Assembly (NCBI GenBank): GCA_040954595.2
Contig: CM082578.2
Coordinates: 16,290,998 to 16,354,997, forward strand
Length of the DNA: 64,000 bases
From: Balanoglossus misakiensis
Lineage: Eukaryota; Animalia; Hemichordata
Reading direction: 5' to 3'
A program made the position numbers and the translations under genes. The notes under the pieces were generated by a model. The model was not told the origin of the DNA and searched no databases. It was given only the letters and a program-made list of their open reading frames with translations. How positions within the stretch are numbered: the first letter of the stretch is position 1; every line of letters begins with the position of its first letter. Below are positions 4,298-50,613 of the stretch, in pieces.

Positions 4298-7200
4298 TAC
4301 ATACATACATACATACATACATACATACATACATACATACATACATACATACATACATACATACATACATACATACATACATACATACATACATACATAC
4401 ATACATACATACATACATACATACATACATACATACATACATACATACATACATACATACATACATACACACACACATACACACATACACACACATATAC
4501 TAAACAAAAGCATGGGAGTATACTACGAATATCGCTTTTCAGCAAACATCCTTAATTTACCTTAACTTCTTGATTTCGAGGCGAACAAATCCTGGAATTA
4601 ACTTGTAGTAGACTCCAAACTGTCAAAAGATCATTCACAAGAATTTGAGACGTTTCTGTAATTTAATACGACTTGAAAGAAAGAAATGCTCAAACTTCCT
4701 AACATTATAAGACATTTCTTTAATTGAATTACCGTAAATTGCCATTGCTTGCCAGAGTATCACACATTTTTCTAGGAGTGATAAATTCATGAAACTGTAC
4801 TGTCACACCTTGGAAATTGTATGGATAAAATCAGGTTACGAACGTTTACTCACTGCATCAGTAAACTCTTTCTCAAATTCCTTGAACTCTTGTGAATATC
4901 TTTCATTGAGCTTCGTATTCCACGTTTTAACAATGCTGATGACGTAGAAAAACACCCTCTTTGCAAATTCTTAAAGAATGAAAAAATATTAGTAAAACTC
5001 CTTGTAGTGTGTCATACTTATGATTGCAATAAATTTGTCTAGCTAAGTATATTTAAATTGTATACCATTAACCAGTGCCAGAATCATGACGTCATGTAGA
5101 TAAAAGTCCAAACTCCTTGAAAAGATATTGTTGTATAATGTATAATTAGATACGAATGGCTATACTTTATCAACAAAATTATAAAACTAACCTTTTTCGT
5201 TTGGTGGATGATCTACCGGAGCTTCAATCAATGGGACTTCTGTTGTCAGTTTAGTGACTGTCGTTGAGCGAGTAGATATATGTTGACCTGTTGTAACTAT
5301 AGGTGATGTGTTGTCTGTAGTTTGGGGGAGGGAGACTGTAGTGGAAATATCTACAGTTGTTATATCCACACTAGTAGTTTCTGCAGGTGATGTGTTATCT
5401 GTAACTTGGGTGGCAGCATCTGCAGTAGTGACAATGTTTTGAGTAGTCGCATCTGTGCCTGTTGGTGTGTCACTTCTAGTCTGGGAGGCAGAGTCTGGCG
5501 TTGAACTAGCTTCAGTTGTTATATCCCCACCAGTTGCTTCTGCAGGTGATGTGTTATCTGTAACTTGGGTGGCAGCATCTGCAGTAGTGACAATGTTTTG
5601 AGTAGTCGCATCTGTGCCTGTTGGTGTGTCACTTCTAGTCTGGGAGGCAGAGTCTGGCGTTGAACTAGCTTCAGTTGTTATCGCCACACTAGTAGGTTCT
5701 GCAGGTGATGTGTTATCTGTAACTTGGGTGGCAACATCTGCAGTAGTGACAATGTTTTGAGTAGTCGCATCTGTGCCTGTTGGTGTGTCACTTGTAGTCT
5801 GGGAGGCAGAGTCTGGCGTTGAACTAGCTTCAGTTGTTATCTCCACACTAGTAGGTTCTGCAGGTGATGTGTTATCTGTAACTTGGGTGGCAGCATCTGC
5901 AGTAGTGACAAGGTTTTGAGTAGTCGCATCTAGATCTGTGCCTGTTGGTGTGTCACTTGTAGTCTGGGAGGCAGAGTCTGGCGTGGAACTAGCTTCAGTT
6001 GTTATCTCCACACTAGTAGGTTCTGCAGGTGATGTGTTATCTGTAACTTGGGTGGCAGCATCTGCAGTAGTGACAAGGTTTTGTGTAGTCGCATCTGACC
6101 CTGTTGACTGCGACAGTGGTGTGTCACTTGTAGTCTGAGTTACAGAGTCTGTCGTTGAACTAGCTTCAGTTGTTATATCCCCATCAGTTGCTTCTGCAGG
6201 TGATGTGTTATCTGTAACTTGGGTGGCAGCATCTGCAGTAGTGGCAAGGTTTTGTGTAGTCGCATCTGACCCTGTTGACTGCGACAGTGGTGTGTCACTT
6301 GTAGTCTGAGTTACAGAGTCTGTCGTTGAACTAGCTTCAGTTGTTATATCCCCACCAGTTGCTTCTGCAGGTGATGTGTTATCTGTAACTTGGGTGGCAG
6401 CATCTGCAGTAGTGACAATGTTTTGAGTAGTCGCATCTGTGCCTGTTGGTGTGTCACTTCTAGTCTGGGAGGCAGAGTCTGGCGTTGAACTAGCTTCAGT
6501 TGTTATCTCCACACTAGTAGGTTCTGCAGGTGATGTGTTAACTGTAACTTGGGTGGCAGCATCTGCAGTAGTGACAAGGTTTTGAGTAGTCGCATCTAGA
6601 TCTGTGCCTGTTGGTGTGTCACTTGTAGTCTGGGAGGCAGAGTCTGGCGTGGAACTAGCTTCAGTTGTTATCTCCACACTAGTAGGTTCTGCAGGTGATG
6701 TGTTATCTGTAACTTGGGTGGCAGCATCTGCAGTAGTGACAAGGTTTTGTGTAGTCGCATCTGTGCCTGTTGGTGTGTCACTTCTAGTCTGGGAGGCAGA
6801 GTCTGGCGTTGAACTAGCTTCAGTTGTTATCTCCACACTAGTAGGTTCTGCAGGTGATGTGTTATCTGTAACTTGGGTGGCAGCATCTGCAGTAGTGACA
6901 ATGTTTTGAGTAGTCGCATCTGTGCCTGTTGGTGTGTCACTTCTAGTCTGGGAGGCAGAGTCTGGCGTTGAACTAGCTTCAGTTGTTATCTCCACACTAG
7001 TAGGTTCTGCAGGTGATGTGTTATCTGTAACTTGGGTGGCAGCATCTGCAGTAGTGACAATGTTTTGAGTAGTCGCATCTGTGCCTGTTGGTGTGTCACT
7101 TCTAGTCTGGGAGGCAGAGTCTGGCGTTGAACTAGCTTCAGTTGTTATCTCCACACTAGTAGGTTCTGCAGGTGATGTGTTATCTGTAACTTGGGTGGCA

Positions 7201-9067
7201 GCATCTGCAGTAGTGACAATGTTTTGAGTAGTCGCATCTGTGCCTGTTGGTGTGTCACTTCTAGTCTGGGAGGCAGAGTCTGGCGTTGAACTAGCTTCAG
7301 TTGTTATCTCCACACTAGTAGGTTCTGCAGGTGATGTGTTATCTGTAACTTGGGTGGCAGCATCTGCAGTAGTGACAAGGTTTTGTGTAGTCGCATCTGT
7401 GCCTGTTGGTGTGTCACTTCTAGTCTGGGAGGCAGAGTCTGGCGTTGAACTAGCTTCAGTTGTTATCTCCACACTAGTAGGTTCTGCAGGTGATGTGTTA
7501 TCTGTAACTTGGGTGGCAGCATCTGCAGTAGTGACAATGTTTTGAGTAGTCGCATCTGTGCCTGTTGGTGTGTCACTTCTAGTCTGGGAGGCAGAGTCTG
7601 GCGTTGAACTAGCTTCAGTTGTTATCTCCACACTAGTAGGTTCTGCAGGTGATGTGTTATCTGTAACTTGGGTGGCAGCATCTGCAGTAGTGACAATGTT
7701 TTGAGTAGTCGCATCTGTGCCTGTTGGTGTGTCACTTCTAGTCTGGGAGGCAGAGTCTGGCGTTGAACTAGCTTCAGTTGTTATCTCCACACTAGTAGGT
7801 TCTGCAGGTGATGTGTTATCTGTAACTTGGGTGGCAGCATCTGCAGTAGTGACAAGGTTTTGTGTAGTCGCATCTGACCCTGTTGACTGCGACAGTGGTG
7901 TGTCACTTGTAGTCTGAGTTACAGAGTCTGTCGTTGAACTAGCTTCAGTTGTTATATCCCCATCAGTTGCTTCTGCAGGTGATGTGTTATCTGTAACTTG
8001 GGTGGCAGCATCTGCAGTAGTGGCAAGGTTTTGTGTAGTCGCATCTGACCCTGTTGACTGCGACAGTGGTGTGTCACTTGTAGTCTGAGTTACAGAGTCT
8101 GTCGTTGAACTAGCTTCAGTTGTTATATCCCCATCAGTTGCTTCTGCAGGTGATGTGTTATCTGTAACTTGGGTGGCAGCATCTGCAGTAGTGACAATGT
8201 TTTGAGTAGTCGCATCTGTGCCTGTTGGTGTGTCACTTGTAGTCTGGGAGGCAGAGTCTGGCGTGGGACTAGCTTCAGTTGTTATCTCCACACTAGTAGG
8301 TTCTGCAGGTGATGTGTTATCTGTAACTTGGGTGGCAGCATCTGCAGTAGTGACAAGGTTTTGAGTAGTCGCATCTAGATCTGTGCCTGTTGGTGTGTCA
8401 CTTGTAGTCTGGGAGGCAGAGTCTGGCGTGGGACTAGCTTCAGTTGTTATCTCCACACTAGTAGGTTCTGCAGGTGATGTGTTATCTGTAACTTGGGTGG
8501 CAGCATCTGCAGTTGTGGTAATGTCTTGAGTAGTCGCATCTGTGCCTGTTGACTGCGACAGTGATATGTCTGGCGTGGATACACACAATACAAATGATAG
8601 TTTGAAAAATCGCACAAATATATTCTACACAGTGCTATATGTATTGCATTATAGCAGCGGTATGTTGCATTATTGTGTGCGTACTCAATTTACTTGTCAT
8701 TGCGTACTTTTAGTCAAACTTTTGACTGTATTTCGACAGACGGTTCAGTTGGCAAGCACAAAATTGTAAATATATACTGTGGCGTTCGTAATGACCAGTG
8801 GTATGTGACGTGGCATATCCCCACCTTTTTGTTCCTGAGAATCTGACAAATACCTTTAAATAGTACAGGAGAGCTAGCTTTGCTCGCGCGTGTTGCCACC
8901 TGATATATGATCAACATACAGAAGAATTCTGCTCTCTTTGTCACCCAGCCTGTTGGAAGCATTGCTGGAAACACAATCGTCACCACAATTATGGAGATTG
9001 TTTTAATCGACTTACCTGAAATAGCAATACAATAAACAATTGTAATAATTGGAATAATCTTTCGCAT
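2355..9067 (-). CDS. Membrane-tethered mucin: signal peptide - Thr/Ser/Pro tandem-repeat domain - SEA - EGF-like - TM - cytoplasmic tail (MUC3/12/17-like architecture)
   Basis: Frame-consistent GT-AG exons (minus): 9067-9016 (MRKIIPIITIVYCIAIS, signal peptide; alternative ATG 9073), 8569-5192 (PTS repeats), 4969-4854, 4619-4561, 4190-4003 (SEA domain with RGSVVVEY), 3755-3599 (Cys-rich EGF-like: CEANFKC...CRSDCYYGYCKNEAHC), 3293-3114 (CRAGSNWYYKGQHCE + TM YVYLAVALSLSALVIIVVFVMVSIT + KRFKK), 2886-2355 (tail, stop TAG). Confidence 0.85.
2995..3033. repeat. (CACT)n microsatellite, intronic
   Basis: Direct reading of tandem cact units. Confidence 0.9.
4242..4500. repeat. Compound (CA)n/(TACA)n microsatellite, intronic
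   Basis: Long perfect tacatac array; it explains the spurious MYVC/HTYI ORFs. Confidence 0.97.
5330..8550 (-). repeat. Coding minisatellite (mucin VNTR), about 20 units of 159/165/171 bp (53/55/57 aa)
   Basis: Unit TGTDATTQNIVTTADAATQVTDNTSPAEPTSVEITTEASSTPDSASQTRSDTP repeats nearly identically, with in-frame DL and LSQS insertion variants. Confidence 0.97.
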
Positions 9068-18874: not shown

Positions 18875-19801
18875 TTACATTCCAACTTCCTCAAAGTTTT
18901 TGTGGCCAGATTTGGAAGCATGATACTGGGCTTCAGCTTCTCCGGTCAGGCCAGTATTGCAGTCGATACATCGTAACCGGAATCTGGCCAAGTCAGTGTA
19001 TTGTTTCATCTGTCTTTGCTCCTCTGCCAGAGAAAGTGCCTTCGCCAGCACGGTGTCGTCTGTTGTCGGAAAGACAGTCTGGATAGGTTCGTCTGCATCC
19101 CCTGTTTCTAACACCAACGGATCATAATGAATGCCACAGTACAGAAGCAGTATTCTGTTTTGATAGTTTTCCGATTCTCCAAAACGACTGATGCGAACTG
19201 ATTGTGTGTCAACTACGTCAATCTCCACGCCGTAGAATTTGGACAAAATGGAAACTTCAATGGCGCCACCCCAGGTTTCATCGCTCATAATCCATGCGCA
19301 ATATTCATCATTATCCCTGCCGAGAAACGCTGTATTGTATGTACTTGGATCGTCAGCCACAACACGAGCAATAAGTTTTCGGAGTTCTCCAGCTCTACCA
19401 GGAGACGCCTGTCCTTGTTCCAACAGCAAACTTATGCTTGTGAATAAACAGGAGTTGTCTGCATCGACCGATAATTTGATCAACCTGCCACCGATTGTAC
19501 TTTTTCCAGTTTTAGTAGCATGATGAGGAATAGATTTAGCTGGGCCTTCCGAGGGCTTTTCTTCCACAAGTATAGTATCTCCGGAACGAAATGGTAAAGT
19601 TTCCAGGGAAGCATTTCTGTCTGAAAGATCAAGGACTCTGGGAGGATATCCATATTTGATTACTTGTGATTCAACAGGGACTCCAGAAAGAGTTGATAGC
19701 TTGTGCAACAGGGTACCAACACTTGAATGCAGAGTCAAATTTTCAATCAGCTTTCTTCCATTCTTTGACTGACACCGTAGATGTAAGCGGCGATCTCCCA
19801 T
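18875..19801 (-). CDS. YOD1: Ubiquitin thioesterase OTU1 (UBX-like + OTU + C2H2 zinc finger); CDS intronless, 5'UTR intron ~19839-20058
   Basis: N-terminal ubiquitin-like region (IKYGYPPRVLDL), OTU catalytic motifs DNSCLF, WGGAIE and GIHYD, and C-terminal CIDC...HASKSGH zinc finger. Confidence 0.96.
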   Translation of the reverse strand: MGDRRLHLRCQSKNGRKLIENLTLHSSVGTLLHKLSTLSGVPVESQVIKYGYPPRVLDLSDRNASLETLPFRSGDTILVEEKPSEGPAKSIPHHATKTGKSTIGGRLIKLSVDADNSCLFTSISLLLEQGQASPGRAGELRKLIARVVADDPSTYNTAFLGRDNDEYCAWIMSDETWGGAIEVSILSKFYGVEIDVVDTQSVRISRFGESENYQNRILLLYCGIHYDPLVLETGDADEPIQTVFPTTDDTVLAKALSLAEEQRQMKQYTDLARFRLRCIDCNTGLTGEAEAQYHASKSGHKNFEEVGM

Positions 19802-20058
19802 GATGATGTTATTTGGGAATTACGATAGTCACTGCATTCTGCAAAATAAAGGAGGCAAGCAGTAAATAATGAGGCAGCTTACATAGGCTGTGATATTGTT
19901 TACTAATTACAAACTGTATATTGCAAAGAATGAAAATCACTTTATTAGGTCAGTCACTGTCATCTGCTGTACTGCAGCTTCCTGTCGCAAATGTAGTATG
20001 AAAACGTCTATTTTTTATAGATAAAATTATATCGGTCCTTGTAAAGATTGATACTCAC

Positions 20059-20227: not shown

Positions 20228-31472
<11,245 letters not shown>

Positions 31473-33553
31473 TTGCCAGATATTGCATGAATGCATTTAG
31501 ATCCCAAGCAGAAGGAAAAATCCCTAGTGAACATCAAACAGCCAGAGCAGAATGTTACACTTTGATGTTCCAACAGTCCGTAATTGTTTGCAACTCTGTA
31601 GATGACAACATTTTCCTGTCTGACACAGTCATCAATAATGATTGTACACATCCTGCAACATGAAGCCAATGAAGATATTCATTTGAATGCTTGAGGGCGC
31701 TGTGCTGACAGTTGTCAAGTAACTAATGATAAAACTCATAAGAATGTGTTGCGTTTCAGTTAGTGTTCCAGTGTAACATTATTCCCTGTAAGTGTGGTGC
31801 TGGTATAGAATAAAAATGGGAGGGATGGTGCCATATATCTATGCTGACGATATTTACATAGTCTGTGGTGCAAATCAAAACACTAAATTAGCCTAAAAAT
31901 AAGGAAACTTAAACTATATCAAGTGCTTCATCCCTCTTGTAAATAAGGAAGTTGGGTAACTATTCAAACCATGAGTGAAATTCAGATTTGTATTCTGTCT
32001 GTTCTGTAGAGAATCTATATTTTGCTAGGAAAATATGTCATCAGGTGTAACATGTCCTGTAGGTTGGGAAGATAGACAACAATAGAAACTGCAATGGGTG
32101 TATTTCAGATTTGTATTTTTGTCCTAGAGAATTCTATAATTTTTGGTAGGAAGATGTTTAGAACTGCATTGTATTCCAATATGACAATGGTGCTTGTGGA
32201 TGATACTTCCTGGTTTGAGTTTGCTCAATGCAAGCATTATATCTCTACTAGGATTGCAGTTTGCTTTGCATGCTTCTGGTGGCCTGTAATAATTGTGCTT
32301 TCTGGGCATATCCTTTAATAGAAGCTGCACAGTATGCATGCATAACAGCTGTGCAGATAAAGATTTCCAGTTAGTTTTGCAGGCATGATGAACAGTATCT
32401 TGAGACTGAAGCGACTGCAACCTTTGTAACCTTTCAGTTCTACTGCGATGCAAGTATCCCACCTAACTGTACATTCTCCAATATCTGCTTTCTGGTGTTT
32501 GACTTGAGACGACAGATGCCTTCAACTACAGCGGGCAGGCATTAGTGCTCATTTTCCTGTATAATAATGTGGCATGGATTGCTTTGACATGTCAATGTTT
32601 TGTGTCATGCAGTTGTGACATGCCACGTTTAGATTTTGTGATTGTGTAGGAACAATCATCTGAAATGAAACCTTGAATATTTTATGTTCAGTACAGCATT
32701 GCAAAGACAAGTGTTATTTGAGCTTTGAACGGCTGAACATAATAAAAAGAATAAAATGCAGCAAACCTGAAACCAGCTTGCGTCTGTTATTCTATTCATA
32801 TTGGCCTTAGTAAGACTGAGCTTCATTAAAGACAGACATGGGTGCAGACACAAAATGCAATTTCATACTGTAGTAAATATTATTTTTCGATCAAATTCCC
32901 ATATTTCTGTATGTATCCACATATGCATGGGGTGATGAACAGCCATTACTTCCAGAAATGCACAAGTACACAGATGCAAAGTTTTGTAACAAAAAGCTAT
33001 TTAATGAACTCAACAATATAACACTATGTAACTACATCAACTATAAAGAAATTTATGACAGATGATGTATCTTCTCATTCCATATGATGAACAACTGAGT
33101 TGTACATTTCAAGTATCCTAGCTGAAAAGCTTTGAGAGAAAACAACTGGTAGCCACAGGTTAAACTGTTCTTGATACAACTTCGAAGGAGACCGTCAGCC
33201 AGTCTTGACTGGTCCCGGAAAACAGCTGTGGAAGTCGCCATATAACTACTAACAGAACAAGGTTTGTTTTCAAACCAACATCAAAAACTGCAGTGTATGT
33301 AAAACTATGCAGATTGTAGCATTCGCTATGAAAATACATGATGTGATCACAGTGAGATAACTCGCATCAACTGACGCAAGTGATCAGTGAACTGGAAATG
33401 AAATATATCATACACTGCCGAGAAACTTTTGCCAAAAACAAACATAACACAGATGAAACACCTGATCAATCAGTAATCTTGATAACATCAACATCACAGC
33501 CACTTTATTTGACTGTGCCAAAGTTCCTCACGTACATCAGAGCTGACTAAGAG

Positions 33554-35289
33554 TTAATCACCAGTATAACCACAGGATCCAGATCTTGGGGAGTTGACAT
33601 ACGGTAGGGCCATCTCAGGATCTGCATCGTCATCAGCTCCACAGCAACTCTCTGTGCAATAGAACTGGCCGTCGAAATCGCAATATACATACTCTGCTGG
33701 CTTGTCGCACTTTTTGCATGGCACCATCGGCTTCACGTTTCGCACAAGGATGATCCCTTGGTTCTCTTCAGTTGACAGCTTATCAAAGTCGCCCGGCTTC
33801 AGACGTTTCTTGCCTGTGAATATGCATTTTATTTACTGTGTATTTTAAAAGACATGATATGCAAACAAGGTCCTATTACAGGCCCTGTGGTATGGATCTG
33901 TGCCAGCAAAGCCATCACATGGCAGTCACAATCTTTTACATTCTATCCTGAGGCCACCATCTGCAATTCAATCTTTTGGAGTTTTGTTGAAGGGTGAGAC
34001 AGCTCTCATAAAAAGACACTCACCTAGGATTTGGATCTTGGCTTCAGTAGTTGTTCCCATATCGTAATCATAATTGATACTGTACTGGTCTCCACAATAC
34101 TTTATGATCTTGTCATCCATTGGTCGTTGTCCCGGCAACGTATCGAAGTCAGGATCGTAGTGTGATGTCAAGATTATCTCCTGGCTGGTTGCCGCAAAGA
34201 GAGCTGCAAAAAAGTCTGGCTATTTTTTTTTTTTTGGGGGGGGGGGGGGGTAGAAATCAAAATGAGTTATGAAAGAACAAAAACCACTAAACATCAAAAT
34301 CAACAAGAAGAAGCAAGGATCAGTGATTGGTCTCAGAAGACCTCCAAAGATTCTTACCATGAAAGGAGGTGCAGGTGGAACTTGGTTGCCTAGGATCTTC
34401 TTTTTGATGTTGAACTGACTCATGTGACCACAGCACTCCATCCATACATCACGCAGGATTGCATCCAGGTCATCGAAATCAGCATCTAACTTAAACGCCA
34501 GAAGCAACTGGAATGCACCTGTGATTAAGAATTGGAGCATGGTGAGATGGTAAACAAACTACGGGTACATACAATGCCACAATGCCAGCTTGCAAAAGTT
34601 ACATGCATGCACACACACACCAGTCAAGTACTCACCATGCCAGTCTCTACTTTTTGCATGTACAAGTAAAGCATTGGGATCACCTTCTTCACACCAACAA
34701 TCATCGAAATGTAACAACCATTGCTGTTTTGACATCACTTTGTCACATTTAGCGCACTGCACAGGCACATTGCTGAATGGGTTTTTCTTCTTAGCTGCTA
34801 CAAGATAGAATAATTTAACATCAGCTTACCCAGTTGCCTTTGATAGAATACACCTATTTTCACATTCTAGCTAGTACATGTAGCACTCAGTACACTACAC
34901 CCCTGCTGCATCATCAGTGTAGATTAGATCAGCAAAATGCTTTGTGTATATGAGATCAATGCTGGGATTTGAAGAAGACAGACTAAAGAAACCTAAAAGG
35001 CCTTCCCCAAGTAAGAAACTCGAGTGCAATAATTACCAGACTTCTTTTTATCCGCCACATCATCTGTGCCTCTCTGCAATCTCATCACCAACTCTTGTTT
35101 GCTCCCTTCAACGGACAGCTTACGTTCTTTGAGTTTATCTTTCAGTTCCACCTCAGTCATGTCGGCCAATTCTAAGCGTTGGACGAGGTCATCCTTGACA
35201 CCGCTTAAAATGTAACCAGTCGCTCGAAGCTTGTCTTTCAGTTGCGATACCGTCATAGACTTGTAATTCACTGATGCGCCAGTCGCCAT
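33554..35289 (-). CDS. Tandem SAP-domain protein fused to a Cys-rich pRiA4b ORF-3-like (prokaryotic-type) domain, ~330 aa
   Basis: Five GT-AG exons 35289-35037, 34797-34636, 34518-34358, 34180-34024, 33813-33554 total 993 nt in one open frame. Two SAP motifs (MTVSQLKDKLRATGYILSGVKDDLVQRL; MTEVELKDKLKERKLSVEGSKQELVMRL) are followed by CAKC..H..C, LDAILRDVWMECCGHMSQF, YDYDMGTTT, LVRN..PCKKC, and PYVNSPRSGSCGYTG. The gene model is firm; the family assignment rests on motif recall. Confidence 0.8.
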
Positions 35290-36586
35290 TGTTTTCTCGG
35301 TCAGAAGATGAATTCACCGATCTCGCTAAAAAGTAACCGTCAGAGGAAATATTTAGTCAACTGTGTCGATCTATATACGAGTGTTCAAGTCAACTACCGT
35401 AAGTCACAACTTACTTGGTCTGTTAATTTCAGCTTTATGCGTTGAACTTGACTGACTGATGGAGAAATGTGCCCTGTCTGAAGTCACGTGGTAAAATATT
35501 GAAAAATGGCGCCACTTGGCGGCAGAAACGGAAAGCTACTGAAACTAGCAAACTAAGCCGAAGTTACAAGCCCACTGGGAGAATCAGCAGTGTTTCATTG
35601 GATTACGGTTGTCTAACCTCACGTGATTTTTTACACAAATTTGCTTCGAATACACTGGATCTCGTTTTTTATCTACTTGCCACTTGGTGGCGCTGATCTG
35701 TCTTATGCATGTGTGAACGACGTCACAGCGCGCACATTGTACAGGTGGTGGCGATTTGCAGATCGGCACCTGTAAACGCCCGGCAACAAAATCAATGGGC
35801 CGTCGGACATCAACATCACGACATGGCAGAATTCGTTTTATGCTGCTTTCTGAAATTTTCTTCGGAATGTGACGAGAAATGTATGCATGGTAGACTGATA
35901 CGCCGACTGCAGGCGAAGCTACTAGTATATGCCAAGGCCTAGGCCCACTCGTTTTTGTGCGACATGTAGGGGCCCAGGCCATGAGCTTTCTATTCATGCT
36001 ATTGGGCGACGACGTCGATGATGATGATCTATGAACTTCAGAAGAAAGACAGTTATGATGTAGCCTAGGCTTATCAAGAAAGACAACTTTCGCAATATAC
36101 AATACGTGTATTTGAACATTTTACTACAAACTTGTGTAATTATTCATACGGTAATACATAAGTTGTATAGATATTGAATTTCAGACTCTAAACTAATGCC
36201 TGATCAGAAAGTATTCAATTGTGTCGTGTACAGTAGTCTTATTTGTTAAGTAGACAGACATTTTAAATTCAACAACAACGCGCAAATCGGGTAATACATG
36301 CTTTTTATCGTATTGCTTTATCCTGAATGAAATAACGACTGGTGTGCGTTTACTGACAGCGCTCTGTCTAAGGCTGTAAATACCTCTCGTGAGCAAGTTA
36401 CAATAAGCATGTTACAATGTTGTGCATGTTTTAATTGGGGGATGATACTATAGTAGTCGTTTTAAAACGGAAGACTTGCCGTAAGATAATAAAAAATAAT
36501 TTCACTTTGTAAAAGTGACTGATCCAGCCACCCCCCGAAACATCGACTCTCCCCCTGTAATTTCTGTGCAATCCAACAGTGGAGAC

Positions 36587-37446
36587 TTATACATGTTCAG
36601 GCGGCGGAGAAGCATGTGGATACGGCTGCTGCCGGGTCGGGTACTGCTGGGCTGCGGCCGGGTACTGCGGCGACGGGTACTGCTGGGCTGGGTACTGTGG
36701 TGGCTGCTGCTGTCCAGGTGGGACCTGCCCGGGTTGGTATGGTTGTTGTTGCTGCTGTTGGTTGTGTCCTGCGGCATAATAGGACTGAGTAGGGTATGTA
36801 CCAACAGGTAAAGTCACTGACGACATCGGCATACTTCCTGTGGAAGCTGTAGGATAGACAAAAAGTGTGCAACAATTACATTTCCTTTCATGCTCCTGTT
36901 TATTCGGATGATAGTTGATCGTGAGCTATCGACATCACACATGTATCTTGAGATGTCCAGAGCACAGGTGACACCGAACGGCCTCTATACTATATACAAA
37001 ACCCGGCTGTTCGATATCACCATTTTCAAGCACCCGTGGTCCAGTCATTGCAGAGGGTTGTTTTTTTTCAACACATACTATTGTAGTTGTCCTTTTGACA
37101 TAAAATCTCTAGTTTCCTCTGGAATGTGTGGGATGTTACTGTACTACCGTATATATACTCATTCGTTCTTTAAATGTCAAATACGAAATATTTGTGGAAT
37201 CGGTTAGGGCCTACAACTGTAACGTAATACAGGTGGCGTTTTACTTACTGGTGTGTTGTGATCGCCGACGTCTTCTCGATGCGTTGATTGGGCACCCAGA
37301 GCACACACAGCAACATATCATGACGCAGATGAAAACAAGTAACATTAAACCAAATATCGCAGCAATGGTGATATATAGGCTGGCGAGAGAAACGAGAGAT
37401 TTTATTTTATTTTCACGAATATAATGGCATATATTGTACCATAAGA

Positions 37447-37545
<99 letters not shown>

Positions 37546-39048
37546 TCAGACAGTGCGCATGCTTTTTTCGCTCTAAGTTTCACCATGTTGTCCCTGCGAT
37601 TATCCCACTTCACCAAGAAAGGCACTCTACGTAGGTGTTTTTTTCCATTTGTACCAGCCAGGATATGTCATGACGGTCAGCTAAATGCTAAACCATATTT
37701 CACCTGCACCTCAAGACAAATCAAGTTTTCAATGTAAGCCTTACTTACGCTGCCATGCTATAGTCATAAGATTCACCACCGTCGTAGCTGTAGTAGTCAT
37801 AATCACAGCAGTACTTTTCGGTGCTAGAACCACAGCAGTAGATATTCCTATCGTCCGGCGAATCACGACCGCCGCAACGGAAACCGCTCACCCAATCTCC
37901 ATACTTATCTAGGTAACCGTCACAGTACTCGCCGTCGTCCATGTAAGCGTCTTCGGTGTTACAGCAGAACTTGTCTTGCCAAGTGCCACAACAGTACGGT
38001 TCGTAGGACTCGCAATAGAAACCATCTTGCCACTGCGAGTATCTGTCATAATAACCGCCGCAATACTCATAGGCTGTGAGAATAGGAATAATTGAACATT
38101 TCACAGGATCGTGTTTTTTAAAAGAAAAAATAATTTTTATTGCTTATTATAAGATGTACAGCTCCCATTATTGTGACCAGGATTTCACCCGCCAAGTGAA
38201 CGGGGATTCAGCTATACCAGATCGAAAATATTACTTAGACATGTAGTACTGAGAAATGTTTTGATGAGTGACAAGCTGAATACTGACCATGTGCCAACAT
38301 GTTGAAGGGAGTAGAACAAGAAACTGTATGGCTACATTAAAAGTATAACCAGTCAGGGCCTGATAATGGGACATGTATATACAATAAATCCTCTATACTT
38401 TTGAATGCACAATCATCGATATAATAGTGCGAAAATGAGGCGGGTCGTTGGGCTGTAAAATGCAGCTTTCAAGCTCAAAAACATTTTTTTGTTCATATTA
38501 CGTTAAGTGCAGCTAATTGTTCTGCCAGTCATAAAACTGTCTCTATTGCGTGTAGGCGATGCGCTCTTGACATCGTGGTATATATGCACTATATAGGCCT
38601 TGGTCTGTAGGACATGTCGTCAACTGTCGTCGGTATGATTATGTCCATCACAAGAGAGTCGAAAGTACGTGTACTGACGCAGCTTTGCAAACACAAAGCT
38701 GCAAGCTGCTTCTAGCAGTTGATATCTCTCGGTGCGGGTCTGTAACCGTGGGTGGGGTGGTAAGGCTACGGACCCACAGCAAGTAATCTACCTATAAAAC
38801 CGATACAAGTGATCGACGCGAGTTAAATACGCTACAATTTATAAAGGGCGTCACCAGACGGTGCTTGTGACTTTCACTCTCAAAATCTAGTACGCTTATG
38901 TGTGTTTTCCGTCTCAGTTCATTTCAACATTGTCACCATCGAATGTCCTTTCGGTAATTGTAAATATTATCTTACCTAAACAGGCACTCATCTGTATGAC
39001 AAGCAGAACTATAACTTTCCCCGACATACTACTCGTCAAAGCCGCCAT
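36587..39048 (-). CDS. Shisa-family single-pass membrane protein (Shisa4/5-like) with two Cys-rich Shisa modules
   Basis: Exons 39048-38976 (signal peptide MAALTSSMSGKVIVLLVIQMSACL), 38073-37749 (EYCGGYYD..W..GFYC...YCCGT...FCC, twice), 37379-37249 (TM + CCCVCSGCP + RRRRR), 36846-36587 (Pro/Gln/Tyr-rich tail with PPQY). Confidence 0.88.
37447..37545. repeat. (GAT)n microsatellite, intronic
   Basis: About 33 perfect GAT units; source of the poly-D, poly-M and poly-I pseudo-ORFs. Confidence 0.97.
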
Positions 39049-42506: not shown

Positions 42507-45500
42507 ATGGACGAGCAGGCTTTGACGGGTTTACGCCCCACGTCAGACTCAAATTCACAGAGAAGGGTAAGTATAAATATTAAGTGTTCATTCATTCATT
42601 CATTCATTCACTCATTCATTCATTTTTTATTAAATTAGTTTACACTTGTTGACTCAAAACCATAATTTGTTAGATTTTGATAAAACTATTTACATGCAAA
42701 CACTTATAATCATGTTCTCAGTCATAATTAGAAAGTCAAAATGACTATGTCGCATTTTAGCTAAACCTTGACAAAAAGGCCAACTTTCCACATAGGTGGG
42801 CTAACTGATTTGCATATTGTTCTGAACACCTGTACACTCTTATAAAAACAGAACACGTAGACATGCAGTTTCAAGTGGTGTCTGCTCAATGCTGATTTTG
42901 ATATGGAGGTTAAGTGTGAGTAAGCCCTACCCTACACATAAGTTATATACCCCTTTAAACTAGGATACCCCTATTCTCATATTCTTGACCGTTTCTCACA
43001 TTTTAGGCATTAGCGTACTTCGAACAGATGAAACAAACGGAAGATGGCTGGCAGATTTGTGGCACTGCTCTCACACAGGGACTGTATGAAGATGATCATG
43101 TCAAGTTCTTTTGTTTTCAAATTATTGAACATTTTATAAAAACAAGGTAACGTGATAAACCTTATGTTATTTAGATCTACCACTAACATCTTTGTCATTT
43201 GCCATGTTGATATATTCCTGTTTGAATAAGTTGGCCATAATTGAACAAGTTGGCCAAAACTAAAAAAAAACTGACAAGATCATTTCTTTCAAGTATAACA
43301 TTGTCATGGTAATGTACATATGATATATTGCATTGTTACAGATACAGAACAGCACCTTCAGAACAACAGACTCAGTTGCGGCAGATGTTACTTAGATGGC
43401 TTCAAGTTCAAGTAAGTCATTCAAACTTCTCTTTTACTTCATTGCCAGCAAAAGGCATAACACGATTGGGTGAGGTATTTTTGAATGGGAGGAGCTAATG
43501 ATTTTACATGATTAGGGAACTGGGGGGTGAAAGGGTTATGAGCTCTGGGAAGAACATGTAACATCATTGTAACAGATTTGATCGCAAGGGCACAAAAAGT
43601 CTATGAAATGACAATATTTTCATGACTTTTATTTCAGAGCATGTCTGGGAAATCAGAGAAGACATTCATTCGCAACAAATCAGCCCAGTTGTTTTCTTTG
43701 GTGTTCGTCCTCGACTACCCACACAAGTGGCCATCCTTCTTTTCTGATCTGCATCAGTTGCTAGGTTACGGCAGTAAAGCTGTGGATATCTATCTGAGAA
43801 TCTTGATGGCAATAGACACAGAAGTTGTGGACCGAGAAATAGTACACACAGCTGAGGTATGATGGTTTATGGCTCAGATTCTAGTTATATGTTTAAACCA
43901 ATATCCTATATTGTATGAAGCTTTCTGATTTAGAGGTTTTTATTTCAATGATATACATATACATCTGTATCTTTTGACTCTTCTTTGCAGGAGTGTAATC
44001 GCAACACAGTGATAAAAGATGCCATGAGAGAACAATGTGTGCAAGACTTGGTAAACACATGGTACCAAATTTTAGTGAGTACAGTTTCTACTCTGTTGTT
44101 ACTTAACCAGTGCCCAGGCGGAAACAGACATGTAGCCAAAGGTCATAGAAGGTACATGTGAAGACTGTTTAGGCACAGTGGTTTAGGCATATCAATAGCA
44201 CTTTCGCCCGGCATTAGAGTTATTCACAATTCAATGTGTAACTTCTGTTCTGTGATGTTTGCAGACTACCTATGAAAACACATGTCCTGAAGTGACATGC
44301 CTATGCCTTGATGTGGTTGGGGCCTATGTTTCATGGATAGACATCTCGCTCATTGCCAATGACAAGTTCATGAGTCTCTTGCTGAAGCACCTGGGCGTAG
44401 ATGTCTTGCAGGAGAGCGCTTGTGATTGCCTGCTGGAGATCATCAGCAAAGGCATGAACCCCATGGCCAAGACAGAACTGGTGGAGTCATTGATAAAAGT
44501 GTTAGAATCTGCCGGAGTGCTGCCACCGAAGGAAGTAAGTATCAACTGTAATGGGTTGAGATTGGGCATCTCATTTGAAGAAATTATTTCTCTTTGTCTA
44601 ATAGTTGGTACACCCCAATCCATTCTTTTCCTGCTTATTCAGGGTTAGGAGAAGTAGCTTATTGTGTTAATTTTTCGCACAAGTATGAGTTTAAAATATC
44701 TTTCATTTTTTGACAATACAGGATGAAGATATTGACTTTTTGGCCAAACTGTCCAAACTCATCAATGGAGCTGGTACCAATCTCCTGGTCAGCTGGAACA
44801 AGTGAGTATTCTGTTGCTGATCGGTTAAAGACCTGCAGCAATTACTTGCAACCTTCCACCAATTGTATAAAAGCACTTGATGTGTAAAAAGTGGTCATGT
44901 GATTGAATATAATGCAGCACAGACACAGGTGTAGCCTTGACCATGTTTGAATTTGATCTTTTCTTACTGAGCAATGTTTGACCCCAAGTGTTATGTCTCT
45001 ATGGTTACAGGTTAGTCAAGGCAGGTGACCAAGAGAATGCCCAGAAAACATTACAGGCTGTGAACATGAAAGTGCCTTTAATGCTGGGTTTCCTCGGCAA
45101 TGAAGACGATGACATCTCAGCAGCTGTGTCAGAATTTGCGCATGATTATATAACAACTCTAAAACAGGTACCTGCCGATTCCTTCATTGAAAATTTAATT
45201 ACACAGCATGATTTTCTCAGCTATGTGGTTGGCTGAAATATCAAAATGTTAAAAGAAAGTCTTAAAGGTTTTTTTATGTGGTTGAGCATTTTAATATCCA
45301 TGTGACAGATAACTTTAAGCAACAAGGTCTTTTAGTTTTGGCCTGGTCTGTTGTCAAACATGTATATTTTATTTGAGGTGCACATATATCCCTAGAGCAT
45401 GTCCCTCATCTCATGGGTCAATGCTTAGAAGAATGTGCATAGAGTAATTGTCGCAGCTAGTCGCCTTTCAAGGTCATTATGACCCAGGTCTTGAAAGTGA

Positions 45501-48500
45501 ATCCTAGTTGTCACACATTTCGCACCCGTCCAGTAACATCATAGTTTTTTTTTCCATTTTATATGTATTATGCACATTCCTCTGTTCCTTTAAAATGTTT
45601 GTATCAAATGTTGCCCTGTTTTCAGATTCCAAATGGCAGTCAGATCTACAAAAGCCAGCTGCAGAACATCATGTATATCATCATCAAGAAATTTGAGTAC
45701 GACGAGAGTTACAACTTTGAGAAAGAAGGAGAGGATGAGATCATGTTCATGGAATACAGAAAGCAACTCAAAGTATTGTTTGACAATATAGCGCAGTTAG
45801 ATCATCAATTGGTCTTAGCAACCATTCATCAGGTTGTTGTGACAACACTAAGGTAATTAGAAGATTCCTTCCCTTTCAGCCTGAATTACTGGTGTGGAAG
45901 TGGTTTTAATTAATGGTGCACATATATCCCTAGAGCATGTCCCTCATCTCATGGGTCAATGCTTAGAAGAATGTGCGCAGATTAATTGTCACAACTAGTC
46001 GCCTTTCAATGTCACCATGACCCAGGTCTTGAAAGTGAATCCTAGTTGTCACATGAGTGTCACTACTGTTTTACACAAACCACACACTGATGTTTGGCTT
46101 GCCTTTTAATCTTTTAGTATGATATCACAAAGTCCAGTCATGAATCACCTCGTACATGTATTCATGTTCATTTGAGATGAACGCTAATGGTCAAAGGTTA
46201 AAGAGCACCCCATATTTTGCTTCATTGATGGATAGCAAGCACTGAGTTGCACGAACTAAAATCTTGGACTGACGAGTTGTTTGCTTCTCACAGACAATGG
46301 GAAAGTGTGAAGTTCACAGAAGTGGAGTTAGCTGTGAGGTTCCTCTACAATATAGGTGAAGCAATCCCGGCCAATCAGAGCAACCATTTCATGGGTGACT
46401 CTCCAAAAGTGACGGCCATGAAAGAAATGATGGCGATGGTAAGTCGTGGTTTTACTGCCTTGACATAATTGGGTTTCAAATATGAGAAGATGTGACTGGG
46501 TAGCAGAATTGGTGACTTGAAGTTTCTATGGAGATGGCACTTTAAAACCAGGGAGATTCACCTCAATTTAACTTACCTTTTGCACACCTCTATGACATCA
46601 GCATCCTAAATACACATATAATTCCATCTTGCAGCTGGTGACCAGTGGAGTTGTTGGCCATTCACACTTTGCTGTTGGTCTACAGGTAAGTTTGCCCTTG
46701 GTATTTTCGCTATCATCAGATGTATTTCATTTTGCCAGCTATATCTACCATGGTTATCATTCCCCTCTCCCGATCACATTTCCCTCACCGATTTCGCTTC
46801 CACCAGGTGTTCGAGACGATATGTCGCTACGACAAGTTCTTCAACCTGGAACCCCAGCATATCCCACAAGTGATTGCAGCATTTCTGGACGAGAGAGGGC
46901 TGAGAAATCGGCATGTGAATGTCCGCAGCAGGACCTCCTACCTGTTTTGTCGCTTTGTCAAAGCCGTCCGAAATCACTTGCATCCGTATACAGAGGAGAT
47001 TCTGAAAAGACTGCAAGAAATCATGGTCATCGCCCCACCAGTAAGTGCTCCTTCAATTCTTCAATGAACGTGAAATAGGAATGTTGTGTTGCTCATGCAG
47101 TTCAAATTCTTCACACCTGAATGTCAGTTTTAAACACAAGTTATGTACATTTCCTTTCTTCTCAGGATAATGGCCACCCAGCCCTCCTCTCTAGCGATGA
47201 CATGCTGTTTATTTTTGAGTCTGCTGGCGTTTTGGTCGTAGCAAGCCAGTTCTCACCAGAGGTAAGATGGTCACAGTATCTTGATTTCAACTATGACAAC
47301 TCACCATTAGGATTCATCTCAGCGTGAGGGGGGAGGGAAGAGACTCCAGGCGCGATCCTGTGAGACAGCAAAGGGTCATATGTATAGTTGTGATTCATGA
47401 CAATTGTGTTTATTTTTCACAGAAAAAACTACTTCTGATGAAGAACATTTTAGCACCACTGATTGCTAAGTTTAACTCGGTTTTACCCAAACTGTGCAAA
47501 GAACAAGATGAAGAGCAACAATTAGTATATGCAGAGCTGGTCAGCCAGTGTATTTCATGTGCAAGGTATGTGTATTATTAGCCTATAGATGGTGCTGTTC
47601 ATATCATCGATCATTGCTGCAGAGAGTTTCTGAGTTGCCACTTTGACCCTTCCAAGAGACATCACAGGACAGGAGAGGGTCAGAGATGCATTATCTATCA
47701 CTGCTATCTTTCTCACACCTGTCTTTTAAATCCAGAAAAGTAACTTGTGATAAAGCGTAACAGTCAAATTGCTAATTTGTCAATTTGATTTAGATGAATT
47801 AGTTTTGTGTTTAACAAATAACTTTTGGGATTGTATGCATGGATGTTTGTGATCAAACATGTATGTGTAAGTGTCTATCATCAGTTTAGCTTTTTGTATA
47901 CCTGATAATTTAAATAATTTCTACAGAAATAACATAAACTTCACTTTTCACAATGTAAAGTGCAATTATACACTAGTTGGATTTGTAGCTACACATGTTT
48001 TGAGTAAGTCACATGGGTAATCCATTTTTCCCATTACTAAATATCTTAGAAGCCTCATACCGTCAAATCTTGGCCCAGAAGCTCAGCCAAGTGAGCTAGA
48101 GTATGTGAAGTAAGTATAAACCGAACAAGGGTAGTTCGGATTTCAATCAATTCCAAATCCAAATTGCTGCATTCTGAATTCCTAACATGAATCAGAATCA
48201 GAAATTTTCAGATAAAAAATCTGATATCTTTGTTGACTGCACATTGACACACCTCCATCATCTTCTTCTTGCCCCCACAGCCGGACCAGCAAGGCATTTC
48301 ACACCAACCAGACCATGAAGCAATGTGGCTGCGAACCCTGTTACCTAGAAGCTCTTCAGGTCTTCCTGCATGCCTTGGACACACCGTATCAACGACAGGT
48401 CGTCCACTCAGCTGTACGCCAGTATTTGCATCGCATGATTGTATGTCTGGAGACTTCTGTACTGCCATACATCCCCATAGCTGTGGAGCATTTACTCAAG

Positions 48501-50613
48501 GGCTGCAGTGCCAAGGACATTCAAGAGTTTATCCCTCTCATTAATCAAATTATTAGCAAATTTAAGGTGAGTGTGTAGGCATGTTTTATTCCAAATGTAC
48601 AATATGTCTTTCAAATTATCAGCAGTGTGATGTAACCACATTCATAAAAGTTTACGCTTTTTCTTCACAAAACCTCCAATGATGTGAAATCATTCAAGGA
48701 TCTGCAAATATGGTCTAACACTTGTCCCTTTTTCCACCTTTTGCAGAAATTAATCGTCCCCTTCTTACAAGAAGTGTTCATGCCGGTAGTGACGACCATT
48801 TTCGCAGTGTTGATGCAACCGGTGGACGCCAATGATACTCAAGCTGCAAAAGAGAAACAGACACTGCAAAGAAGTTACTTTCAGTTCCTACAGGCGCTTG
48901 TTGTCAATGACGTGGTGGAAGTCATTTCAAATCAGAGTGAGTATTATCCTGATGGAAAACCAAAACCCAAATGTTTGTTTTACTTTTGTCACCTTTTTGT
49001 GGTACATCTGTGTAACTAATTCATTTTATGGTTAATTTTCGATCACGCTGCATGGGGATACTGAAGATAGCAAAGTTGCTTGTTGATAGAACTTTTTCTC
49101 TTAGCATTCACACCTTACTCTTAACTCTCCAGGTCCTCAAGATGGCCACCGTGTTCTCTTGACGGTGATAGAGGGCGCTGTTAACTTTCCTGATCCTGTG
49201 GTGAGTGTGTGGAAATATCTTTGCTGAATTATCCATTAACATGGGTCAGCTAGTTTTAGTAAGATTGTTTCATTTCCACCGGAAACCAGCTGATTGCAGT
49301 CATGATGATATCATTTCCTAAATAGTAGAATATCAGTTTCTAATGATAACTCTAATTATCATAAATGTGCAGTATCGATGACTTGACGTGTCAGTGTAAG
49401 AAAAATTCTATTATCAATCAGACTGATACTGCTGTTGTTTTTGTCCAAAACGAGACAGCAGGTGGCCAGACATAACATTTAACACTATACATCATCTTGC
49501 ATGCTAAACACCACTTGTGTAATCCAGTACTCAATGGATGCCATGGTGATTCACGATTAACCTTTTTTATCTGAAGGACATGTAAATTAACAAATGGTGA
49601 GCAGCTGAACAAACTGACAGATGGCCTCCTAAAATGGAAGTTTTATGTTCAGAACAAGCTATTCACACGTTTGCCTATAGACGCAAGCACAGCAATATCT
49701 TCATGTACGTCATTCACTCTGTAAGTTATAAAATGACAACATCAATCAATCAGTTTCTGTTTCTGTTTCATTTCAGTCTCAGAAGACCTGCTTTGCAATT
49801 CTGCGAAAATTGGTTGAGGTATGGGGTAGCGAAGACGGACCTGCCGGTTTCCGAGAGTTCATTTATAAGAATATTATTCCCGCCTGCTTCCATGCACCAC
49901 TGAAATCCACGTTCGATATGAACGACGGCCAGACTTTTCTGGTGAGTGCATTTTGTCATAATGATCACATCATCTGGTGTTTCCCCCAGGCAGTTACTTT
50001 TTTGCACAGAAGCCCTTTCGATAACACCTGATTTATGAAAAAAAAATTTGGACTTTGATTTTTGCATTCTATCATTTTCCTTTCAGGCTCTGCAGGAAGA
50101 CAGTGCATTGCTGAAAACAATACTAGCCAAACAGGGTGCCAAAGCACACACATTTCTCCAACAGGAATATTTACCTTCTCTACATGTTTTGCCAGACCTT
50201 GCACAGGTTAGTGACTGTTATATATTTTTAATTCAGTGGAAATGACATGTTGATTTTGCTACAGGTAAGCTGTTCAAGCAGTGTTTGTGAAGAGCTGATG
50301 AACTGAATTCTCTGTCCTTTACTATTCAAGTCAACCTTTTTGATTGACTCATCCGTGTTTTTAATTTTGCAGGAATTCTGTCAAGCACTGGAGCAGACTG
50401 ACACAAAAGTTTTTAGAAATTATTTTAAGGCAAGTTGAGGTTAATGATCCGTGTTTACCATTAGAGCGACCATCCAGAGAAGGCGTGACTAAACAAAAAA
50501 GAAATTGCAACTTTAAGTGACATTTGAAAATCTACCTCCCCCCCCCCCCCAACTCAATGTTTACCAATGTGTGTTTTGTCTCACAGGCATTTCTGCAGAG
50601 GTTGAAGTCGTGA
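42507..50613 (+). CDS. XPOT: Exportin-T (tRNA exportin)
   Basis: About 21 exons from MDEQALTGL (42507-42566) through EKTFIRNKSAQLFSLVFVLDYPHKWPSFF, VDREIVHT, YVSWIDISLIAND, GEDEIMFMEYRKQLKVLFDNI, FLDERGLRN..VRSRTSYLF and VRQYLHRMIVCL to AFLQRLKS* (50587-50613). Motifs are recognisable as XPOT/Los1. Confidence 0.96.
42586..42624. repeat. (TTCA)n microsatellite, intronic
   Basis: Tandem ttca units. Confidence 0.85.
45377..45519 (+). ncRNA. SNORA68: Box H/ACA snoRNA, SNORA68-like copy 2 (XPOT intron)
   Basis: GTGCACAT...AATGTGCAT hairpin, H box AGAGTA, CTAGTCGCCTTTCAAGG...TCTTGAAAGTGAATCCTAG, then ACA. Same guide pocket as the RPL18A copy and sense to the host. Confidence 0.75.
45915..46056 (+). 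ncRNA. SNORA68: Box H/ACA snoRNA, SNORA68-like copy 3 (next XPOT intron)
   Basis: Near-identical duplicate of 45377-45519 with H box AGATTA and terminal ACA at 46051-46053. Confidence 0.75.

Follow-up and report, generated by a model that had tools for sequence, protein, structure and literature searches.

An acorn worm gene joining two SAP domains to a cysteine-rich MM3350-like core, and its possible origin in an ancient transfer from prokaryotes

Results

A stretch of 64,000 nucleotides from the acorn worm Balanoglossus misakiensis (contig CM082578.2, positions 16,290,998 to 16,354,997; hereafter, the window) carries a five-exon gene on its minus strand, from 35289 to 33554. It was found that the product joins two SAP domains to a cysteine-rich core related to the prokaryotic PF07929/MM3350-like proteins. 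An earlier note, made from the sequence alone, had read the gene as a candidate for a domesticated transfer from a prokaryote or a giant virus. I propose that the SAP-SAP-core combination is a new domain fusion and probably a case of transfer, of the ancient and patchy kind already known from other genes. In the fuller reading, which I hold to have an even chance of being right, the MM3350-like module came by one ancient transfer from a prokaryote into an early bilaterian, and the protein with its two SAP domains is a nuclear zinc-binding protein held on DNA.

Structure of the gene and its product

As listed in Table 1, five exons, with junctions placed from the DNA and from homology, splice into 993 nt encoding 330 residues and a stop codon, with no internal stop. 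All four introns (239, 117, 177, and 210 nt) are of the GT...AG type. The canonical exons and the intact 330-residue open reading frame (ORF) described earlier were recovered in this way, and so were the motifs that had been listed along exons 2-5, all of them in the order given. Exon 4 has two in-frame AG acceptors; use of 34181 yields the 330-residue form, and use of 34220 (AG 34221-34220) yields a form of 343 residues, in which the added 13 residues line up with a helix predicted in each of the two hemichordate orthologues. In alignments to the Ptychodera and Glandiceps orthologues, the 343-residue form scores 320 and 241 bits, versus 315 and 232 bits for the 330-residue form. With random 13-mers as a control, the combined bit gain was matched by 15 of 1000 (121 of 1000 for Ptychodera alone and 37 of 1000 for Glandiceps alone). 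The upstream acceptor is preceded by 13 consecutive A, an unfavourable context which counts against the longer form. On these comparisons the 343-residue form appears somewhat better supported, and residue numbers follow it here. The best-looking acceptor of exon 4, at 34204, was rejected because joining it to the strong donor at 34357 shifts the reading frame. For exon 2 there are tandem acceptors, 34797 and 34794, and the choice between them makes a difference of one residue.

The SAP profile (PF02037) matches exon 1 in two stretches at 67.4 bits against a cut-off of 23.9; these domains had not been named in the earlier note. Exon 1 can be aligned with all the animal homologues, and contains an internal 29-nt direct repeat at a spacing of 96 nt. 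In an alignment of 167 rows, C99, C102, and H114 are conserved in 89-95% of the rows, and Y244 and D245 are present in about 100%. The invariant D157, R161, Y244, D245, and NSPR residues make up a conserved surface. The cysteine and histidine residues suggest three metal sites, with the putative assignment of C99/C102/H114 (with C118) to one, C167/C168/H170 with C338 to another, and C290/C293/C310/C314 to the third. The family profile matches UBZ/Sgf11-type fingers weakly. The NCBIfam and PADLOC collections gave no informative match for the animal proteins or the core (9 proteins).

Animal orthologues

With exon 5 as the sole query, a Ptychodera flava protein with a matching layout was found. 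Its identity to the window protein is 48-49% over the whole length (E ~1e-111); thus, the gene is not a chance ORF. An exhaustive phmmer search was performed with the Ptychodera core against 1.84 billion representatives, with clusters at 50% identity, and the best 150 of 1,201 matching clusters were examined. There are 1,201 clusters at E<=1e-3, 566 at <=1e-10, and 3 at <=1e-30, these three being Ptychodera, Glandiceps talaboti, and the annelid Owenia fusiformis. Among the best 150, SAP domains were also seen in the products of a second Ptychodera gene and of two genes from Saccoglossus kowalevskii. A profile search with the animal core added a Saccoglossus expansion, one member of which has been deposited as 'SAP domain protein-like protein 224'.

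The SAP-SAP-core fusion is common to the hemichordates Ptychodera (XP_070558320.1 and XP_070568842.1), Glandiceps (XP_077982574.1), and Saccoglossus (APU50780.1 and paralogues) and to the annelid Owenia (CAH1788522.1). Thus, the gene is not confined to one species. Compared with the window protein, identity is 49% for Ptychodera, 46% for Glandiceps, 31% for Owenia, and 29-31% for Saccoglossus and the paralogues. The Ptychodera, Glandiceps, and Owenia homologues sit on contigs of 36-47 Mb. The Glandiceps isoforms X1 and X2 diverge at the position of window intron 1, which is the sole comparison of intron positions. Subfamily A comprises the window protein, one Ptychodera protein (P0001), and the Glandiceps protein, all with intact motifs. 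Subfamily B comprises the Saccoglossus proteins and the product of the second Ptychodera gene; it has a long branch and eroded motifs, with E changed to Q in the WxECC motif and a degraded YDxG motif. Subfamily B is expanded in Saccoglossus (P0169-P0171, P0275-P0279, P0025, P0035, and P0022), and several of these genes share contigs.

The SAP profile matches 15 of the 383 proteins collected, and all 15 are animal proteins; no SAP domain was found in the non-animal relatives examined. The patchiness predicted in the earlier note was borne out, the named carriers among the matches listed being three hemichordate genera and Owenia. The best non-self matches, which it expected to be prokaryotic or viral, are instead animal orthologues (hemichordates, then Owenia). 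Therefore, any transfer must be ancient and not particular to the window's species. A literature search by accession of the animal orthologues found no paper, and one on a cysteine-rich PF07929-like family in animals found no account. Two supplements of Simakov et al. 2015 contain no mention of SAP, pRiA4b, PF07929, or MM3350; the main Supplementary Information, which holds the transfer candidates, lies outside that coverage and may mention them.

Relatives in prokaryotes, a protist, and viruses

The profile of the animal core matches that of 133 prokaryote-type proteins with a probability of 100% (E 1e-52, 34% identity, 208 columns). The prokaryote-type members are about 200-240 residues in length. 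In a collection of prokaryote species, a relative is encoded in 580 of the 600 stretches examined, with about 1,900 matching stretches estimated, and the 80 loci retained cover more than 15 bacterial and archaeal phyla. In three archaeal phyla carriage is sporadic, at 2 of 401, 5 of 401, and, for the Asgard phylum, 6 of 301 sampled genomes (incomplete metagenome-assembled genomes (MAGs), counting the centre genome); this speaks against a core gene inherited by all eukaryotes. The nearest prokaryote-type proteins of the animals were sought in two archaeal phyla, and nothing closer than 41% was found there. Only 4 of 72,556 plasmid records match, with the Deinococcus plasmid members labelled pRiA4b, and phage records gave no family match. 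Scans of viral contigs gave six distinct contigs, namely, five that, in the parts read, resemble prophages or integrative elements, and one giant-virus MAG. In the IMG/VR contig L003 (1928-3982) the family gene lies beside what I take to be a BREX-type Lon protease-like gene, and in IMG/VR contigs L001 and L004 the neighbours are presumably phage terminase or recombinase-like genes.

By hand count, PF07929 matches 96 of the best 150 relatives at E<=0.01, of which 43 are at or above the gathering cut-off of 26.6 bits. The Glandiceps and Owenia proteins score 20.4 and 20.7 bits, respectively, and neither the Ptychodera protein P0001 nor any of the four core exons taken singly gave a PF07929 match. 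Three prokaryote-type relatives (P0009, P0013, and P0106) are fused to Rho_N, a helical nucleic-acid-binding module whose likeness to SAP is seen in a fold match at rank 5. Other fusions of prokaryote-type members are with SEC-C (P0016 and P0130), DUF7309 and DUF6930 (P0085, P0090, P0139, and P0148), and DUF6398 (P0068 and P0088). The neighbourhoods of 164 prokaryote-type loci revealed no family-wide partner, and the 107 of 214 neighbour clusters scanned gave one TnpB-like domain and no recurring transposase. Haem-biosynthesis genes (hemA, hemC, cobA/hemD, and ResB-like) lie beside 24 of the 164 loci (for example, L079, L069, L026, L107, L111, and L122), in one clade which is Planctomycetota where named. 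This may hint at a metal- or haem-linked role of that clade or at a single old insertion; haem biosynthesis as the function of the whole family was rejected because the association is confined to one clade.

At least one protist, Heterostelium album, has a member. Hyperionvirus and Barrevirus proteins match the fold at E 1e-8 and 3e-8, with template-modelling scores of 0.72-0.73 to a prokaryote-type model. A giant-virus MAG contig of 17% GC (L172, 4977-6664) has two tandem members, one intact (207 residues) and one diverged (341 residues, with an acidic insertion). The neighbouring ORFs of that contig are DnaJ- and RNase H-like, as read by eye. Two proteins from ENA/metagenome data, P0005 and P0066, have a full core followed by a degenerate second copy, and group with the giant-virus sequence and Heterostelium. 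Against the window protein, the prokaryote-type P0021 scores 119 bits, Heterostelium 64, and the giant-virus member 59.

Phylogeny

I built five trees, all unrooted: maximum-likelihood (ML) trees on 77, 42, and 43 hand-picked rows of 381 among them, and a FastTree on 475 rows. Rows with short coverage were dropped (2 fragments of 383, and L085 from the 475-row tree). The animal proteins form one clade with full support in all five trees, and no sequence lacking a taxon label falls within that clade among the 475 rows. In the 43-row ML tree, the animals and five prokaryote-type proteins are split from all the others at 95.8/95, and Heterostelium forms a group (83.6/83) with the giant-virus sequence and three proteins of similar composition. 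The 475-row FastTree agrees with this tree at 0.91, and the next node (0.93) takes in two archaeal loci. Heterostelium falls with giant-virus-type sequences in three of the five trees. Nesting of the animals amid prokaryote-type sequences has moderate support in four of the five. Thus, the nesting in a prokaryotic clade foreseen in the earlier note stands to the extent of that moderate, unrooted support, while a union of the animals with Heterostelium is not rejected. As for a giant-virus source, giant viruses do carry the family, but their members are more distant from the animal proteins than the prokaryote-type ones are.

Several points weigh against a transfer from prokaryotes. The quick mixture-model tree of 77 rows gives no supported sister group of the animals. 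In approximately unbiased (AU) tests, a union of the animals with Heterostelium was not rejected (p 0.88; 0.335; 0.21 and 0.11), nor was one with the giant-virus group (0.44; 0.23 and 0.11). In the first AU test (p 0.88) the quick free tree fell 28.6 log units short of the constrained one; the free tree was preferred in the two later test sets. The test likewise failed to reject a control union, with a Chloroflexota sequence (AU 0.19), and therefore the alignment can discriminate little. The stem of the animal clade is long (0.7-1.0), the nearest proteins carry no taxon label, and the trees have no root. Since Heterostelium lies outside the best 150 of the 1,201 matches, more eukaryotic members may exist; the word-based search with the animal core is insensitive, having missed the Owenia sequence of its own input. 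Finally, a single early transfer requires many losses.

Predicted structure

A structure model was made on the Ptychodera orthologue as a stand-in (pLDDT, the predicted local distance difference test score, 85.8), along with one of a prokaryote-type protein (91.3). The best solved fold for the Ptychodera model is MM3350 (2I1S), at Foldseek rank 1 with a probability of 1.0 and E 1.5e-3, and at Z 11.7 with a root-mean-square deviation (rmsd) of 3.9 over 159 aligned residues. This top rank is the outcome of a comparison with MM3350-like folds such as the earlier note had called for. Its PF07929/MM3350-like identification holds for homology and for fold; the animal proteins are nevertheless below the PF07929 cut-off. 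Second comes the SNAPc chain 7xur_B (Z 7.2, rmsd 4.7, 179 aligned), which was taken to be SNAP50 on account of its 411-residue numbering, and further matches are SAP-like and ubiquitin-like domains. For the prokaryote-type model, MM3350 matches at Z 13.8 over residues 36-159 only, and 7xur_B matches at Z 8.8, with residues 11-218 against 152-411. A PDB sequence search with the family profile returned weak finger matches and 2I1S at E 0.078, and nothing else. The predicted architecture is a ubiquitin-like (beta-grasp) core between an N-terminal finger and a C-terminal C4 finger, resembling the C-terminal two-thirds of SNAP50. The earlier note knew of no characterised animal member, yet the fold does have a characterised animal relative in SNAP50/SNAPC3.

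Genomic context and features of the window

The gene lies among animal genes. Pfam confirmed the PFKFB and Shisa flanks named in the earlier note, and identified OTU1 (18878-19819) and Exportin-T (44256-48575) farther out. A defined locus among bona fide animal genes is one of the criteria of Simakov et al. 2015 for transfer candidates in deuterostomes (PMC4729200), and such a locus was found here. Independent contigs from DNA runs cover the locus. No flanking terminal repeats were found within 30000-38500, and the GC content of the gene is 0.46 versus 0.45 for the host OTU1 gene.

Alleles were compared in three DNA runs of one sample, which is possibly the window's own source. A second allele departs at 6 synonymous and 5 non-synonymous sites (ratio of non-synonymous to synonymous polymorphism, pN/pS, 0.21; binomial p 0.013); this is a small test, on 11 sites in a single sample with 7 of the 11 in exon 5. 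All the indels of the second allele are outside the coding exons.

Table 1. Positions of the exons and of other features in the window (residue numbers of the 343-residue form).
Feature	Position	Strand	Content
Exon 1	35037..35289	-	Start codon; two tandem SAP domains (~residues 7-72); onset of a Lys-rich linker, putatively a nuclear localization signal
Exon 2	34636..34797	-	CxxC...H...C finger (C99, C102, H114, C118); first strand of the ubiquitin-like domain
Exon 3	34358..34518	-	Helix and WMECCGH motif (D157, R161, W164, E166, C167, C168, H170); columns 95-100% conserved
Exon 4	34024..34219	-	Starts at 34180 (330 residues) or 34219 (343 residues); YDYDMGTTT motif (Y244, D245, G247)
Exon 5	33554..33813	-	RN linker; C4 finger (C290, C293, C310, C314); NSPRSGSCGY end (N331-R334, C338); stop codon
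AATAAA	33504..33509	-	Candidate poly(A) signal, 44 nt past the stop codon
T13/G15 homopolymer tract	34223..34250		Within intron 3, adjoining the upstream candidate acceptor; contigs break there
PFKFB exons (Pfam-matched stretches only)	22739..25755	+	PF01591 6PF2K, PF00300 His_Phos_1
Shisa-like gene	36502..38143	-	Shisa_N exon 37748-38143 (PF13908, 67 bits); Pro/Gln-rich tail read from the sequence

Elsewhere in the window, the OTU1/YOD1 deubiquitinase occupies one open frame of 314 codons (18875-19819, minus strand), and a mucin-like exon of 1145 codons with Thr/Ala/Asp-rich tandem repeats lies at 5187-8624 on the minus strand.

Discussion

Origin of the gene

The case for transfer rests on the distribution: more than 1,000 prokaryote-type clusters, sporadic presence in Asgard archaea, and few eukaryotic carriers, which tend to fall in two places. 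Among the named matches in the best 150 of the 1,201, none is from chordates, echinoderms, ecdysozoans, or most spiralians. The tree names no donor and leaves vertical descent possible; transfer is thus favoured but not proven. Owenia (E 3e-40) outscores the best prokaryote-type match (8e-35), so that the gene is not deuterostome-only, contrary to the deuterostome-stem criterion of Simakov et al. Since the SAP fusion is shared by a deuterostome phylum and a protostome, the event predates their split, unless the gene moved from animal to animal. The proposed course is that a prokaryotic module would have been transferred before the protostome-deuterostome split, fused to an animal SAP pair, supplied with introns, and lost in most animal lineages. 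In acorn worms, a later duplication would have given the conserved subfamily A, which includes the window gene, and the expanded, motif-eroded subfamily B of Saccoglossus and Ptychodera.

Could the family instead have descended vertically from an early eukaryote, at least as old as the ancestor of animals and Amoebozoa and maybe beside the SNAP50 ancestor, with loss nearly everywhere and the SAP domains added in animals? The Heterostelium member, on a 2.3 Mb contig and placeable with the animals under the AU test, is consistent with such descent, as is the presence of the family in an Asgard archaeon (L005), and the GH13_1 amylases show a similar pattern for which retention has been discussed (PMC7003070). 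I regard it as unlikely, since the Asgard sequences are rare and do not join the animals, and the Heterostelium protein, the one protist carrier among the matches examined, tends to group with giant-virus-type sequences and scores far below P0021 against the window protein. A later transfer into acorn worms or annelids, followed by animal-to-animal transfer to the other lineage, seems similarly improbable. It would suit the short list of named carriers and the joining of Owenia to hemichordate subfamily B at 85.7/84 in the 43-row ML tree; however, the position of Owenia within the clade is not settled in three other trees, and its core identity to the window protein, 36% versus 45-47% for hemichordates, is as species divergence would give. 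That a giant DNA virus brought the gene into the animal germline, possibly with the SAP domains, I consider quite improbable. The shared fold in Hyperionvirus and Barrevirus, the tandem members of the MAG contig, the unrejected AU union, and the frequency of SAP proteins among the giant-virus rows of the fold search speak for it. On the other side, the 207-residue member is without the SAP region, is separated from the animals by the 95.8/95 branch, and is at 59 bits against up to 119 for prokaryote-type proteins. The possibilities that the locus is contamination, a mobile element, or a chance ORF wrongly spliced can be practically dismissed, chiefly because other animals have full-length orthologues. 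The pRiA4b ORF-3-like genes do ride on some prokaryotic transposons (PMC3942029), but the spliceosomal introns, the animal neighbours, the independent contigs over the locus, the absence of terminal repeats around it, and its host-like GC content are against all of these.

Role of the protein

The two SAP domains, the Lys-rich linker, the lack of an evident signal peptide, and the Rho_N fusions in three relatives point, with odds that I put slightly above even, to a nuclear, DNA-tethered zinc protein working as a binding or adaptor module. The SAP pair, judged from its domain family, would bind DNA with little sequence preference and bring the zinc-stabilised core with it. As in SNAP50, contacts with nucleic acid or a partner would be made by the invariant surface of the core (DxxxR..W.ECC.H, YD.G, and NSPR.G.C), and the protein would be a regulator or adaptor bound to chromatin. 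Against this reading, the likeness to SNAP50 is of middle strength (Z 7.2-8.8, 8-11% identity, Foldseek E 5e-3), and the DNA-contacting tryptophans of SNAP50 are not evidently kept. The main rival, conceivable though I doubt it, is that the core is instead a metal-dependent enzyme, for example, on nucleic acid, which SAP merely tethers, and that subfamily B is catalytically changed or dead. Invariant polar residues beyond the plausible zinc ligands (D157, R161, E166, Y244, D245, N331, S332, and R334) suggest a pocket, subfamily B has lost the Glu of WxECC and much of YDxG, and SAP is often fused to nucleases, both in the fold-search rows and as general knowledge. Yet no enzyme is among the top fold matches, the zinc fingers of SNAP50 are structural (PMC9652321), and no substrate-pathway neighbour recurs beyond one clade.

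A bolder idea, which I put forward tentatively and think rather doubtful, is that the DNA-binding core of SNAP50 stems from the prokaryotic, cysteine-rich PF07929-like family, and that an early bilaterian regained the module, probably from archaea, as a SAP-fused, stand-alone SNAP50-like chromatin factor which acorn worms, the window's species, and Owenia have retained.

Accepted transfers into animals mostly concern enzymes. If the reading of an ancient transfer is true, a transferred nucleic-acid-related module has been rebuilt by a eukaryote-type DNA-binding fusion and kept since before the protostome-deuterostome split. The gene would then provide a compact and tractable system, both animal and prokaryotic, for studying a family whose function is unknown, and a testable clue to the origin of the SNAP50 fold in the small nuclear RNA (snRNA) transcription machinery. 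Saccoglossus, Ptychodera, and Owenia are all in laboratory use.

Comparison with known systems

The animal orthologues share the SAP-SAP-core layout and motifs of the window protein and form one clade with it; they are annotated as uncharacterised or by SAP alone, and those of subfamily B differ from the window protein in their eroded motifs. MM3350 of Methanosarcina mazei is the best solved fold for the family, and its function is unknown, as is that of the family. MM3350 covers mainly the ubiquitin-like domain, to which the window's family adds the N-terminal finger, the CC of WxECCGH, the C4 finger, and the NSPRxGxCGY tail. Window-type animal members further differ from PF07929 in falling below its cut-off, in having introns, and in having two SAP domains. 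I know of no characterised protein of PF07929. Proteins of this type are labelled 'plasmid pRiA4b ORF-3 family' or 'IS1096 element passenger TnpR family' at NCBI. PF07929 is described as a domain of unknown function that rides on some Mutator-type transposons (PMC3942029). A passenger gene of the IS1096 or ISAzba1 kind would lie inside a transposon next to a transposase; no terminal repeats were found around the window gene within 30000-38500.

SNAPC3 has a ubiquitin-like domain, a C2H2-type finger, and a C4 finger (PMC9758055), and in SNAP50 the fingers are structural and loops contact the DNA (PMC9652321). SNAP50/SNAPC3 (PF12251), which is the subunit that binds DNA in the snRNA-activating complex (SNAPc), aligns with the models over the ubiquitin-like domain as well as the C4 finger at the C-terminal end, at middling Z scores. 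PF07929 (98%) and PF12251 (47%) occur together in one bacterial cluster of the Atlas. A PF12251 scan gave no match for the window exons or the Ptychodera protein, and one prokaryote-type relative matches at E 0.0048, below the cut-off. The N-terminal lasso of SNAP50 has no aligned counterpart, and the window-type animal proteins have SAP domains in its place. Outside SNAPc, SNAP50 does not bind DNA. On the profile scores of its exons and of the orthologues, the window protein is filed neither as a PF07929 member, these scores being under the cut-off, nor as a SNAPC3 orthologue, there being no profile match. SNAP50 was published with no known homologous structure as of 2022 (PMC9652321), yet both models match MM3350 and SNAP50.

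Among the animal genes for which transfer has been argued, msp130 has been argued to have been acquired before the bilaterians (PMC11878542), and the GH13_1 amylases occur in hemichordates and a few protostomes, with retention discussed as well (PMC7003070). These genes and the candidates of Simakov et al. are likewise prokaryote-like, intron-bearing, and patchy in marine bilaterians, with early transfer or loss argued. In contrast to these, whose products are surface proteins or enzymes, the window gene encodes a predicted nuclear zinc protein fused to a eukaryote-type DNA-binding domain.

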